Part shown: piece by piece, positions 29,910-33,421 of the stretch
How the letters are laid out: the number at the start of each line of letters is the position of its first letter
Position numbering within the stretch: the stretch's first letter is position 1
Assembly (NCBI GenBank): GCA_964467335.1
Contig: CAYXPX010000001.1
Coordinates: 12,320 to 49,591 of the forward strand
Length of the DNA: 37,272 nt
Reading direction: 5' to 3'
Source of the DNA: Candidatus Woesearchaeota archaeon
Lineage (GTDB): Archaea > Nanobdellota > Nanobdellia > SCGC-AAA011-G17 > GW2011-AR18
Position numbers and translations under genes: made by a program
The notes under the pieces: model-generated
What the model was told of the DNA's origin: nothing
What the model saw: only the letters and a program-made list of their open reading frames with translations
Database searches by the model: none

Positions 29910-32903
29910 TTAAACTTTAGTTTTCACCCCGAGATTATCAAGTGTTTTTTTTACCTTTTCTTCCTGCGAGTCTCCCTTTGATGCAACACAAAGCAGTGCT
30001 ATATTTTTTCTTAAGCCTATTGGTGTTCCCTCAGGAGTCTCAATAGGGCAATTGTGGGTTATAAACCCATTAGCAATTAATGTATGAGTATTTTCTTTTG
30101 TGGTAAGGTCTCTGACGTCATCTATTTCCTGTGCGCTCTTTTGTATAATTCTCTCCCATACTGCCCCAGATTCCCCTAATTTCGAAGATTCCAGCCATTT
30201 AGTATACGATTGCAATAAATTTTGTGTATTTCGGGTTTTCTCATATATTTTTTGGTTAAATAACCACCCATTGATTACCCTATAATTTATTCCAAACCTT
30301 TCTGATATTCTTTTAGGTGTTAACCCATCTGAATATAATTCTTTGACATCATTCTTTAATTTTTTTCTTTGGTTTATCACCATTTCTCTTATTCTCAGCC
30401 ACTCGCCAATATAATTCGAGTTCATTTCCTTTTGTTTGCAGTATCTGTAACCTATAACATTTAGGGTTTTCTTTATATTATTGTAATCATTTGCAAATAT
30501 AATTTTGCATTTAAGCATAATTGCCTTGTCTTTTCTTATATAATCTTCAGCTAGTTCTATATTTTTTATTTTAACACCAAGATACATGAAAAGTTTTTTT
30601 ATATCTTCAGCAAATCTCTGTATATTATTTTTTAACTCTTTTCTCTTATGAAAAATAAAGTTCCCTAAATTTAATTTTTCTCCAGACAATCTTTCATTTC
30701 TTATTGATATCCTTGGCTTGGAACCATCACCGCCAAGCAAAGCAGCTAAAAATTCCCTTTTAACTGATAGGCTAGACTTAAATAACCATTTAGGAACATA
30801 CAACTCAGTGTCTGTTTTTCTGCCAACAGGAGCACCAGCACAAACCATTAAAGAATGTAACGCCCCGCCCTTGCTCAACATAAAAGTTCTATAATTCACC
30901 TCTCTATCAGACAATTTTATTTTAGTATCCTTTTGTATTATTTTGGACGGCTCAAACCCCAATAATCTTATATCATTAGCCACAGCCTCAGCATCATTCC
31001 TGCTGCCGCAATAAAATTCCAGGTTATACTTTCCACAATGCCCATCTGAAAATAAGTGGCCCATTAACCTTGCAATTATCTCAATTTTATAGTTGTTTGT
31101 AGTTAAGGGTAGCAATTCATTTGAATGCAGTTCTTTTATATCATGTTTAAATCTTTTTTGGTAATTTTTTTCAATATCGCTAACACTAACTATCATTTCT
31201 CCTAAATTTTCATTTGGTAATTCTGGAGTATTAATTTTATCAAGAGTAGGATAAACAGCAACATTATCTCCGACATTAAGTTTAGCAGCATCAATCCAGC
31301 CATGTTTTGTATAAAAAGGATGGTCCTGCGTGGCAAGTATCTCTCTTCCGCTTTCAGAAACCAATTTATAAACAGTTTTGCCCATTAATTTGGGATTTGA
31401 AGTATAATATTTGGATATACTTGATTTTATTAGTGCCTTATCTTTAATATTATATGTCAAAATCTTATGATGATTCCAGCAATTTTGCAGATTTTCTAGA
31501 GTTTTCGTTGAATATCCGTCTGCCAGCAAAACATTTGTATCCTTGCTCAAGCATAATCTTCCCCAATGCGTCGGATGCAGCGCCCTTGCCTCAAAATTTT
31601 CCTGCGTGCTTGTCAGCAGGGAAACAACCCTCTGGAGATGTGAATAAGTTGCAAGTATATTTGTTCTGTCAATATTTTGGCTGACTCCCTTTCTTCCGCC
31701 TGTCCATGTGCCTGTTGCAAGTGAACTCTTTATATTTGATGTAAGAAGCTCATCTCTTATTATTATTTTGATGCTCTGGAATTTTCCTCTCTTTACAAGC
31801 CTCTGGAAGTTATACAGTATATCCTGCACAAGGCTTCTAAGGTTTGTTCTTATAAGGTCCTCAAGTAAATCCCCTGCAAGCTTGAGTCTTTTGTTGGCAT
31901 AATGATCCTTGTCAGGCAGTGGAAGTCCGTCGCTGCTTGCCTGCAGAAATTTTCTTATCATTTTGCATAAGTTATATGCTTTTACAATCCTGTCTTTTGG
32001 CGAAGTTCCAACATGCGGCAAAAGATATCTGTCAAGCTGCTCTTTTGTTCTCTCATATTTTGCTTCCTTTGGCTGTGAAATTCCTGCCCTTTTTGAAAGA
32101 TATTCAAGTGCATCATCCTCTGTCTTTATGCCGGCTGAATCATATAAATTTATAAAAACAGAGTCATAGTTTTTTTCGGGGCAGATCATCTTTACTATCT
32201 CCTGATCCTTGGTCATTCCAAGTGCTTTTAGGATAGGGAAAAGTGGTATTCTCTTAAATCTTGTAAATGTTAAGTAAAAAATTCCATCCTTCATCTGCTC
32301 AATAGTATGGGGTATTCTGTAGCTTCCCATCTCTGAAAAAACCCTTGCAACATACTCGCTTGGTCCTATCTCTTTTTTTTCTATAAAAATGCGGTTTGAT
32401 GCAAGATCTTCAACAGTGACAAGAACTCTCTCATTTCCGTTTATCATAAAATATCCGCCAGGATCATCAGGATCCTCGCCTTTTGAAATAAGTTCCTCTC
32501 TCTTAAGTCCGTGAAGATGGCAGTATTTTGACCTGAGCATTATCGGAAGCTTTCCAATCATTGTAACAAAATTTTCTCTCTGTATGTCATCAACATATGC
32601 GCTGACCTCAAGAAACATCGGAGCAGAGTATGTCAGCATCCTGAGCCTTGCCTCTGATGGAAACACATCTCTTTTGCTGCCGTCAGCTTCAATTATTGTG
32701 GGTTTTTCTATCCATATTTTTTTTAATTTAATAACAAAGCTCTCAACTTCCTGGGGAATAATTGTAGGGGAAATATCTCCGACTTCATCCACAAGAATCT
32801 GAAGTCTTCTGTCAACAAAATCATTAAAGCTTTGTATATTCGCCTCTACAAAAGGATTTTCCTTAAAATATTGTTTGATAAGATTATGATATCCCTTAAC
32901 CAT
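29910..32903 (-). CDS. rpoB2: DNA-directed RNA polymerase subunit B'' (N-terminal half of B) interrupted by an intein
   Basis: 997 aa. Extein motifs GYFMINGNERVLV, HYANKRLKLAGDLL and HPTHWGRL / CPIETPEGTPIGLRKN flank a 501-aa insertion. The extein sums to 496 aa, a normal B'' size. Confidence 0.9.
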   Translation of the reverse strand: MVKGYHNLIKQYFKENPFVEANIQSFNDFVDRRLQILVDEVGDISPTIIPQEVESFVIKLKKIWIEKPTIIEADGSKRDVFPSEARLRMLTYSAPMFLEVSAYVDDIQRENFVTMIGKLPIMLRSKYCHLHGLKREELISKGEDPDDPGGYFMINGNERVLVTVEDLASNRIFIEKKEIGPSEYVARVFSEMGSYRIPHTIEQMKDGIFYLTFTRFKRIPLFPILKALGMTKDQEIVKMICPEKNYDSVFINLYDSAGIKTEDDALEYLSKRAGISQPKEAKYERTKEQLDRYLLPHVGTSPKDRIVKAYNLCKMIRKFLQASSDGLPLPDKDHYANKRLKLAGDLLEDLIRTNLRSLVQDILYNFQRLVKRGKFQSIKIIIRDELLTSNIKSSLATGTWTGGRKGVSQNIDRTNILATYSHLQRVVSLLTSTQENFEARALHPTHWGRLCLSKDTNVLLADGYSTKTLENLQNCWNHHKILTYNIKDKALIKSSISKYYTSNPKLMGKTVYKLVSESGREILATQDHPFYTKHGWIDAAKLNVGDNVAVYPTLDKINTPELPNENLGEMIVSVSDIEKNYQKRFKHDIKELHSNELLPLTTNNYKIEIIARLMGHLFSDGHCGKYNLEFYCGSRNDAEAVANDIRLLGFEPSKIIQKDTKIKLSDREVNYRTFMLSKGGALHSLMVCAGAPVGRKTDTELYVPKWLFKSSLSVKREFLAALLGGDGSKPRISIRNERLSGEKLNLGNFIFHKRKELKNNIQRFAEDIKKLFMYLGVKIKNIELAEDYIRKDKAIMLKCKIIFANDYNNIKKTLNVIGYRYCKQKEMNSNYIGEWLRIREMVINQRKKLKNDVKELYSDGLTPKRISERFGINYRVINGWLFNQKIYEKTRNTQNLLQSYTKWLESSKLGESGAVWERIIQKSAQEIDDVRDLTTKENTHTLIANGFITHNCPIETPEGTPIGLRKNIALLCVASKGDSQEEKVKKTLDNLGVKTKV
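30051..31553 (-). mobile_element. intein with double-motif LAGLIDADG homing endonuclease domain in RpoB''
   Basis: Begins with Cys (CLSKDTNVLLADG) right after HWGRL. Ends with THN followed by the +1 Cys (CPIETPEG). LAGLIDADG-type motifs are LMGHLFSDGH and FLAALLGGDGS. There is an HTH-like segment (LTPKRISERFGINYRVINGWL). Confidence 0.85.
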
Positions 32904-33138
32904 CTACCACCAGCCTGTAATAATCAGTTTCCTTTGCTGTATGACTTTTTCTTTTTATTAATATAACATCCCCTGCCTTCACTCCAAGATCTTTTATTGC
33001 AGGATCGCTTATTTTTATCATCGGAAGCTGCTTTTCAGAGATATTGAAGGTTTGTAACAGCTGTTCCTTCTGGTCTTTGGTAAGCTTTATGTGCTGGGGT
33101 ACCAGAAAATGCTGGTTAATTTGAAGTTGTTCAACCAT
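32896..33138 (-). CDS. rpoH: DNA-directed RNA polymerase subunit H
   Basis: 80 aa. HFLVPQHIKLTKDQKEQLL...QLPMIKISDPAIKDLGVKAGDVILIKRKSHTAKETDYYRLVV follows the Rpb5 C-domain pattern. It overlaps the rpoB'' start by 8 nt. Confidence 0.88.
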   Translation of the reverse strand: MVEQLQINQHFLVPQHIKLTKDQKEQLLQTFNISEKQLPMIKISDPAIKDLGVKAGDVILIKRKSHTAKETDYYRLVVDG

Positions 33139-33151
33139 TTTGTATTATTAT

Positions 33152-33293
33152 TGGGCCGGATGGGAAATGCACAAACAAACATTTCTGCTTAGTCTGTTTT
33201 GAACCCACGACCACCTGCTGTCTTCAGCCTGTTAAAAGGAACACCGCCAGTTTTAATTGGCTCAGGTGCTCTACCAAGCTGAGCTACCGGCCC
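33152..33293 (-). tRNA. tRNA gene with two intervening sequences, probably tRNA-Phe(GAA)
   Basis: The reverse complement reads GGGCCGG-TA-GCTC-AGCTTGGTA-GAGC-A-CCTGA-[34 nt]-CTGAAGA-CAGCAGG-TGGTC-GTGGG-TTCAAA-[32 nt]-T-CCCAT-CCGGCCC-A. The acceptor, D and T stems all pair. The loop CTGAAGA gives anticodon GAA (33223-33225). No CCA is encoded. The 3' strand of the anticodon stem is not canonical. Confidence 0.7.
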
Positions 33294-33421
33294 TAGCTGG
33301 GGTTATTAATCCCTCTAAAGTATGTGATAAATGCACTTATGATTACTTCTAGAAGGGACCATAAATTTTGGAAATTCCGTCTCTATTTAAAGCTAACGCT
33401 TTTTTGTAAGTTGTGTAGACA

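Follow-up and report, generated by a model that had tools for sequence, protein, structure and literature searches.

The stretch of DNA analyzed here (the window; 37,272 nt, contig C1:12320-49591) belongs to an 867-kb, 35% G+C, 98.8%-complete genome, and the close homologs of its proteins are found in Candidatus Woesearchaeota assemblies. The minus strand of the window at 33152-33293 holds a real tRNA gene of 142 nt, which lies upstream of a gene for RNA polymerase subunit H (rpoH; Table I). The 5' part of the tRNA gene reads GGGCCGG-TA-GCTC-AGCTTGGTA-GAGC-A-CCTG and the 3' end CCCAT-CCGGCCC-A. The acceptor stem, the D-arm, and both strands of the T-stem are evident in the unspliced sequence, and CCA is not encoded at the 3' end. 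A first-pass annotation, made from the letters of the window, had placed a 142-nt minus-strand tRNA gene within these same limits. It had also recognized an archaeal tRNA gene with several noncanonical introns of the bulge-helix-bulge (BHB) type, and had remarked that the anticodon arm deserved a proper fold. All three statements hold, and the arm is re-resolved below.

Exon-intron structure and predicted spliced product

All BHB-like candidates in the region were enumerated, and every combination of up to three of them, plus an optional canonical intron, was tried. This BHB-plus-cloverleaf search and ARAGORN, run on the spliced product, agree on the same three introns and the same anticodon. 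The three-intron parse has a cloverleaf score of 25.6, compared with 22.1 for the top genome-wide parse that was judged spurious. Removal of the three introns leaves a full-length tRNA-Lys(ttt) of 74 nt with all stems paired (74 + 23 + 13 + 32 = 142 nt), in which 21 of 21 cloverleaf pairs are formed. The spliced anticodon arm is a perfect CCTGC-CTTTTAA-GCAGG, and its seven-nucleotide loop, CTTTTAA, has U33 and a purine at 37 and carries the anticodon UUU in register. The four exons stand in linear order on the same strand of this 142-nt gene, which is neither split nor permuted.

Table I. Features of the tRNA-Lys(UUU) locus in window coordinates, with the occurrence and length of each intron in the ortholog set
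Feature	Coordinates	Strand	Length (nt)	tRNA position	Content or motif	Orthologs with intron	Length in orthologs (nt)
Exon 1	33263..33293	-	31	1-30	Acceptor 5' strand, D-arm (9-nt D-loop), anticodon-stem 27-30 (CCTG)		
Intron 1, AGCCAATTAAAACTGGCGGTGTT	33240..33262	-	23	30/31	Strict hBHBh'	20/24	13-108
Micro-exon, CCTTTTA	33233..33239	-	7	31-37	C32, U33, anticodon U34 U35 U36		
Intron 2, ACAGGCTGAAGAC	33220..33232	-	13	37/38 (canonical site)	Mini-intron; bulge-helix-loop	23/24	11-28
Exon 3, AGCAGGTGGTCGTGGGTTCAAA	33198..33219	-	22	38-59	Anticodon-stem 3' strand, variable loop, T-stem 5' strand, most of T-loop		
Intron 3	33166..33197	-	32	59/60	hBHBh', one central-helix mismatch	11/24	19-37
Exon 4, TCCCATCCGGCCCA	33152..33165	-	14	60-73	U60, T-stem 3' strand, acceptor 3' strand, discriminator A		
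rpoH	32896..33138	-			RNA polymerase subunit H/Rpb5 C-terminal domain; begins 13 nt past tRNA 3' end		

Every exon-intron junction lies in a BHB motif or in an accepted relaxed form of it (arrows mark the cuts). Intron 1 has the strict motif 5'-AGAG-CACC-TG↓A-GCCA-(8 nt)-TGGC-GGTG-TT↓C-CTTT-3', with an outer helix AGAG/CTTT (4 bp), a central helix CACC/GGTG (4 of 4 pairs), an inner helix GCCA/TGGC (4 bp), and the bulges TG↓A and TT↓C. One side of this motif, AGAG-CACC, is made up of the D-stem 3' strand and the anticodon-stem 5' strand, and the 3' strand of its outer helix, CTTT, is C32-U35 and thus includes two anticodon bases. The motif of intron 2 comprises a central helix CTTT/GAAG and a 3' bulge AC↓A, with the 5' cut site in a nine-nucleotide loop; there is no room for an inner helix, hence the relaxed bulge-helix-loop form. 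In intron 3, an outer helix GTGGG/CCCAT (5 bp) and an inner helix CAGAC/GTTTG (5 bp) enclose the bulges AA↓A and TT↓T and a central helix TTCA/TGCA, in which three of the four pairs form and one is a U·C mismatch. Excision of intron 3 gives the T-loop TTCAAAT. Searches of the genome with blastn for further copies of introns 1-3 returned self-matches only.

For intron 3 the first-pass annotation is exact in every respect, from coordinates, length, and position to helices, bulges, and restored loop. The remainder of its model has to be revised. It had counted two introns and had read the anticodon region as a single 34-nt insert followed by a Phe-type loop, CTGAAGA, with Phe(GAA) as the isotype and an abnormal anticodon arm or a damaged gene as the consequence. 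The BHB search, ARAGORN, and 24 orthologs instead resolve this region into a 23-nt intron, a 7-nt exon, and a 13-nt intron, giving three introns in all. The CTGAAGA string is enclosed by the 13-nt intron 2, and the spliced product, with its perfect anticodon arm, is tRNA-Lys(UUU), as are the orthologs.

Orthologs and the identity of the gene

Homologous loci were collected by DNA search from 60 related genomes, and the ortholog set consists of the 24 genes that parsed as tRNA-Lys(UUU), namely the window's own and 23 from relatives. An rpoH-like start is situated 11-88 nt downstream in 23 of these 24 genes, and the rpoH neighbor is a marker for orthologous tRNA-Lys genes. Orthologs carry one to three of the introns listed in Table I. 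Across related genera every combination of one to three introns occurs, at three fixed positions and with lengths of 11 to 108 nt, a range that amounts to a natural series for intron gain, loss, and length drift. The full three-intron layout is preserved in at least eight genera, with compensatory changes. Carriers of intron 3 are ten genes from the window's own family and one further gene (L017). In another locus of the same family (L006), the three-part layout was recognized by eye, a base substitution having caused the parser to misread it.

The exons are conserved and the introns variable. Exon column identity averages 93%, exon 1 is nearly identical across the 24 orthologs, and the introns have little in common apart from the bases of the motifs. 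In intron 1 the central helix occurs as CACC/GGTG, CACT/GGTG, CACT/AGTG, CATC/GATG, and CATC/GGTG, shifting in a compensatory manner with exon bases 27 and 28, and the inner helices have wholly different sequences among orthologs with pairing kept. The inner helices of intron 3 likewise covary among carriers, five of which have a perfect central helix, TTCA/TGAA. After splicing, 99.7% of the cloverleaf pairs of the orthologs are standard, and seven pairs change on both sides among the 17 distinct sequences, counts that lean toward structure given that the splice sites were picked by a parser rewarding cloverleaf pairing. Shuffles and slid registers fall far below the observed ortholog pairing.

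Within the stretch formerly taken as a 34-nt insert, the orthologs contain a conserved block, GGTG-NN-x-CTTTTA, of which CTTTTA is invariant. At the position of CTGAAGA, by contrast, relatives have CTGATGA, CTGACGA, GGAATGA, or AAGGGGA. An ortholog from a different genus (L014) possesses the T-loop intron only and displays an uninterrupted arm, CCTGA-CTTTTAA-TCAGG. Taken together, the conserved CTTTTA and this uninterrupted arm identify the gene as tRNA-Lys(UUU). The Rfam tRNA model matches orthologs with fewer interruptions, located at this same site upstream of rpoH, at 40-62 bits, and these read UUU.

These comparisons bear directly on the Phe(GAA) interpretation, in which CTGAAGA is the anticodon loop, a single 34-nt insert and the 59/60 intron are removed, leaving an abnormal arm or a damaged gene. 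ARAGORN does call Phe(gaa) when the 34 nt and the 59/60 intron are taken out; however, the call requires an extra 2-nt "intron" and an A·G mismatch, neither of which the three-intron product needs. The supposed loop is unconserved in orthologs in which CTTTTA never varies, and those with an uninterrupted or once-interrupted arm (L014, L022, L025, L031) read UUU. Elsewhere in the genome, at C25:797-883, the minus strand also carries a clean tRNA-Phe(GAA) whose D-loop holds a 14-nt intron. A Phe identity for the gene in the window is therefore exceedingly unlikely. The first-pass annotation had envisaged that an intact second tRNA-Phe gene might leave this copy as a pseudogene; the intact gene is indeed present, but the copy in the window is a functional-looking tRNA-Lys gene and not a pseudogene. 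Three further ways of folding the region were discarded, each failing on the CTTTTA that orthologs conserve: a class II tRNA with CTGAAGACAG as variable arm, a suppressor-like eight-nucleotide anticodon loop (CCTGC-TGAAGACA-GCAGG), and a 7-bp stem, CCTGCTG/CAGCAGG.

A different partition of the same tRNA-Lys(UUU) gene would involve two introns, a 24-nt intron before C32 and the one at 59/60; the anticodon stem would then have 4 bp, and CTGAAGACAG would stay in the tRNA as a long variable arm. ARAGORN reports this parse when intron 3 alone is removed, and CTG-AAGA-CAG could fold as a small hairpin. Yet such an arm would be out of place in tRNA-Lys, which belongs to class I and has a short variable loop. 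The stem would have only 4 bp, with the 31:39 pair missing, and the second CAGG/CAAG that must follow the loop is missing in L008, L017, and L028. In the three-intron structure the 31:39 pair joins the micro-exon to exon 3, and it is C-G in eight of the distinct spliced sequences, A-U in six, and G-C in three; this covariation demands that the 13-nt element be removed. Little credence can be given to the two-intron partition, which we rate as extremely improbable.

Pair 31:39 also fixes the boundary of intron 1 in the three-intron structure. Since the micro-exon opens with base 31 and 31:39 covaries, the first splice site is placed at 30/31 rather than at 31/32. Cutting at 31/32 would draw A31 from exon 1 and create an A31·G39 mismatch. 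The genomic CCTGA does resemble the CCTGA stem of L014 and L022, but the BHB geometry, with its perfect CACC/GGTG, sets the cut after G30. Moreover, the first intron base would mispair with base 39 in L017, L020, and L028, whereas the base following the intron always pairs. The shifted boundary is accordingly very unlikely, and 30/31 is retained.

tRNA complement and splicing machinery

A genome-wide census gave 17 confident tRNA genes and two more by hand; its seeds require an intact D-arm or T-arm, and about half of the expected set is missing from it. Uninterrupted genes make up only three of the 17 confident calls. A tRNA-Lys(CUU) at C1:4698-4797 has one 27-nt intron. In the tRNA-Leu(UAG) of the same genome, introns at 30/31 and 37/38 flank a 7-nt micro-exon, although the first motif is nearly without an outer helix there, in contrast to the strict hBHBh' of tRNA-Lys. 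The tRNA-Thr(UGU) has four introns, at 30/31, 37/38, and 59/60 plus a D-loop insert, so that tRNA-Lys has one intron fewer. ARAGORN accepts the spliced products of both tRNA-Leu(UAG) and tRNA-Thr(UGU). The 7-nt micro-exon recurs in three genes and is among the less ordinary features of this genome.

The unspliced tRNA-Lys(UUU) gene is invisible to standard tools. ARAGORN called no tRNA in the unspliced window, and with the intron option it missed the gene in a scan of the whole genome. The intron search with ARAGORN that the first-pass annotation had proposed as a check thus fails on the raw gene and succeeds on the spliced product, which is called tRNA-Lys(ttt). Rfam at the gathering threshold returned nothing across the whole window, and at E <= 10 on the gene stretch it returned meaningless weak matches and no tRNA. 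The sole tRNA found for AAA consequently escapes both ARAGORN and Rfam. In such genomes, tRNA counts underestimate the true complement and may falsely suggest missing decoding capacity.

No second tRNA-Lys(UUU) was found in the genome-wide scan, the census of which covers about half of the expected tRNA set. In long ORFs, 9379 of 12954 Lys codons (72%) are AAA, which makes up 6.3% of all codons. As AAA is dominant among Lys codons, the tRNA-Lys(UUU) gene must work. This weighs against a decaying pseudogene, that is, a former tRNA-Lys that has accumulated insertions and is no longer processed. Such decay could account for a gene that standard finders and Rfam do not see, for the central-helix mismatch of intron 3, and for the missing inner helix of intron 2. 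It is hard to reconcile with a cloverleaf in which all pairs are intact, with a layout maintained through compensatory changes in other genera, with the conserved position upstream of rpoH, and with the lack of any other AAA-reading tRNA among those found, AAA being the most used Lys codon. The pseudogene explanation is highly improbable.

The genome encodes the enzymes that protein-mediated splicing would call for. The tRNA-splicing endonuclease EndA is identified by PF01974 at 103 bits, together with its N-terminal domain (PF02778), and the ligase RtcB by PF01139 at 479 bits. RNase P RNA was also detected (92.9 bits), ruling out RNase P loss as an explanation for a structured leader. A search of all ORFs of at least 50 aa for a second EndA subunit (Pfam at E <= 1, phmmer at E <= 100) yielded one EndA gene only and no beta subunit. 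The core of this gene lies at C16:14866-15126, in an ORF of 167-210 aa. The protein aligns end to end with Methanocaldococcus jannaschii EndA (1a79), with a one-residue difference in length and no insertion. On gene content, EndA is predicted to be of the alpha4 type: the one subunit has both the N- and the C-terminal domain and the catalytic Tyr/His/Lys, lacks a fused repeat, and has no beta partner. The type of endonuclease had been named by the first-pass annotation as something to establish, and the genome answers with one plain alpha-type EndA.

In a pairwise alignment with the Aeropyrum pernix alpha subunit, EndA has a nine-residue gap in the N-terminal domain at the presumed site of the Crenarchaea-specific loop (CSL). 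A pairwise alignment with the Nanoarchaeum equitans alpha subunit shows that EndA is without the six basic residues located just before the catalytic His in that protein, the Nanoarchaeum-type loop. Judged from these alignments, EndA appears to be without any of the specificity loops (CSL/L1, ASL/L2, and the Nanoarchaeum-type L3). Published rules hold that a 5' site within a loop, as in intron 2, demands a broad-specificity enzyme, a point against the splicing proposed here. The relaxed motif of intron 2 suggests that the restriction of alpha4 enzymes to strict BHB substrates does not hold here. A single-subunit EndA resembling that of M. jannaschii, found beside many noncanonical or relaxed introns and a micro-exon, puts to the test the rule by which an additional loop is required for broad specificity.

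We conclude, with a probability of about 0.92, that 33152-33293 is an intact tRNA-Lys(UUU) gene composed of four exons (31, 7, 22, and 14 nt) and three protein-spliced archaeal introns, the only Lys(UUU) gene of its genome, with predicted processing by EndA and RtcB and probably an ordered course of splicing.

Proposed splicing order and relation to known systems

In the proposed pathway, EndA would cut the pre-tRNA at six bulge or loop sites, RtcB would rejoin the exons, and CCA would be added afterwards. The 30/31 and 37/38 motifs are mutually exclusive, as both need C32-U35 (CTTT); nor can the first motif form alongside the D-stem and the anticodon stem. Folding models suggest that splicing is probably ordered, with intron 1 leaving before intron 2. 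Intron 1 would first be cut out of an alternative, rod-like fold, after which the cloverleaf would form and present intron 2. With this order the 7-nt micro-exon would not be set free as a separate fragment. In the alternative fold the mini-intron would pair with the D-arm and leave the D-stem 3' strand available to the first motif.

Bases 33224-33231 of intron 2 are complementary to bases 33275-33282 of the D-arm (8 bp; D-arm positions 12-18, transcript positions 12-19). For the full-length precursor, the minimum free energy (MFE) fold (-59.5 kcal/mol, z = -4.8) encloses two parts of the first motif, its central helix and its inner helix, in this D-arm:intron-2 helix, with RNAfold favoring a continuous GAGCACC/GGTGTTC helix over the second 3-nt bulge of the motif. 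When intron 1 is removed, the predicted fold contains the anticodon stem and CTTT/GAAG. A D-arm:intron-2 duplex of -10 to -14 kcal/mol, equaled by at most 3% of shuffled introns, is found in 13 of the 19 orthologs with introns 1 and 2 and at that level in none of the four without intron 1, in a comparison among phylogenetically related genes whose nearly invariant D-arm permits no true covariation with intron 2. Both helices occur together in the MFE fold of 11 of the 20 orthologs carrying intron 1. Pairing between the D-arm and intron 2 is weak in L024 and L028, which have altered D-loops, and L031, without intron 1, still shows the helix.

It is tempting to regard mini-intron 2 as a folding guide in cis, in which a conserved CAAGCTGA-like core pairs with the D-arm, the resulting rod fold presents the 30/31 motif to a plain EndA, and the cloverleaf and the second motif arise only after intron 1 has been removed and the exons joined. 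This proposal is tentative, and we consider it less likely than not. If true, the splicing order would be built into the RNA by mutually exclusive folds, and the micro-exon would never be free. A C/D-box guide RNA in intron 2, an idea raised by CTGATGA in relatives, was rejected; 13 nt are too short, and the motif is absent from the window's copy.

Archaeal tRNA genes with multiple introns are known already, and the tRNA-Lys gene described here joins that class. According to the accessible portions of two articles (PMC4033280, PMC4090602, reviewing Sugahara et al. 2007/2008), multi-intron tRNA genes of Thermoproteales (Pyrobaculum, Thermofilum, Caldivirga) contain up to three introns, and the three of tRNA-Lys equal the published maximum as given there. 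The introns of Thermoproteales are described in these portions as being cut by a protein endonuclease and then ligated, which is likewise proposed here. The hosts differ, a mesophilic DPANN archaeon of about 0.9 Mb here as opposed to hyperthermophilic crenarchaeotes. So do the enzymes, here one alpha-type subunit that apparently lacks the Crenarchaea-specific loop, there an (alpha-beta)2 endonuclease that has it. Unlike in Thermoproteales, there is no sign of recent intron transposition at the present gene.

Closer to the present host, alpha4-type EndA has been reported from several DPANN lineages, one Woesearchaeote included, in the accessible part of Kaneta et al. (2018; PMC5829648). There, the enzyme is tied to increased tRNA gene disruption and to incomplete predicted tRNA sets that call for manual curation, and an "L3" loop surrounding the catalytic His is connected with broad specificity. 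The EndA of this genome differs from that description in having no insertion at the L3 site in pairwise alignments. The tRNA-Lys gene is one of the hidden DPANN genes implied by that part of the paper, which holds no description of a three-intron tRNA-Lys layout.

Less ordinary in the present case are the recurrence of the micro-exon, a sole EndA that is apparently without a specificity loop, and, were it to be borne out, the use of a mini-intron as a folding guide. The split and permuted tRNA genes of Nanoarchaeum equitans, Caldivirga, and Cyanidioschyzon merolae rely on the same BHB-based cutting and joining and are likewise hidden from gene finders. In contrast to these, the tRNA-Lys gene needs neither trans-splicing nor permutation.

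Linkage of tRNA-Lys(UUU) to RNA polymerase genes

The tRNA-Lys(UUU) gene is adjoined by rpoH in 23 of the 24 genes parsed by our bulge-helix-bulge and cloverleaf search (the window's own gene and 23 from relatives, at orthologous loci in the range L003–L031), with gaps of 11–88 nt; the gap in the window is 13 nt (table below). The conserved adjacency and short gaps suggest co-transcription of the tRNA with the RNA polymerase operon, and formation of the mRNA 5′ end by 3′ processing of the tRNA. The gene for RNA polymerase subunit B is a 997-residue open reading frame matching Rpb2 domains 1–3, of which residues 459–951 form an intein splicing domain.

Features of the tRNA-Lys(UUU) region and other loci in the same genome
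Feature	Location	Strand	Remarks
RNA polymerase subunit B gene with intein	window 29910–32903	−	downstream of rpoH
tRNA-Lys(UUU)–rpoH spacer	window 33139–33151		13 nt from tRNA end to rpoH start codon
Imperfect inverted repeat, CCCTTCTAGAAG ... CTTTAGAGGG	window 33294–33365	−	~20–70 nt upstream of tRNA-Lys(UUU)
RtcB match	contig C3:17392–18730	−	outside window
tRNA-Phe(GAA)	contig C25:797–883	−	outside window

One ortholog, at locus L006 of a related genome (G016), was misread by the parser because a G replaces C at position 28, so that base 28 no longer pairs with base 42 and the central helix of intron 1 (the intron at 30/31) is broken. This substitution may be a sequencing error or mark a decaying copy.

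The upstream leader

An inverted repeat also occupies the region upstream of tRNA-Lys(UUU) in relatives, at the same place, as TTCTAAGA ... TCTTAGA or TCTAGA ... TCTAGA, and is preceded there by a TATA-like TTTAAATA. The repeat may form a leader hairpin or provide paired protein-binding half-sites; for the window sequence alone, the predicted fold of the leader is unexceptional (z = −1.45). In more distant relatives (L014, L016, L020, L022, L028, and L031), a tRNA-Asp(GUC)-like gene, often interrupted too, lies directly upstream of tRNA-Lys(UUU), and the inverted-repeat leader stands in its place in the window's own family.

Other tRNA genes and RtcB

In the genuine tRNA-Phe(GAA) gene of this genome the anticodon arm is continuous and the D-loop contains an intron of 14 nt; the spliced product is accepted by ARAGORN. 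Together, ARAGORN and the parser recovered ~20 of the roughly 45 tRNA genes expected in the 98.8%-complete genome. All but three of the 17 genes identified with confidence are interrupted, and canonical mini-introns 12–17 nt long occur often, in the Thr(GGU), Val, His, and Gln tRNA genes among others.

The match to RtcB is divided between two adjacent open frames, covering model positions 1–48 and 49–425 and separated by ~30 nt. A frameshift or an assembly error could account for the division, as could a small insert.
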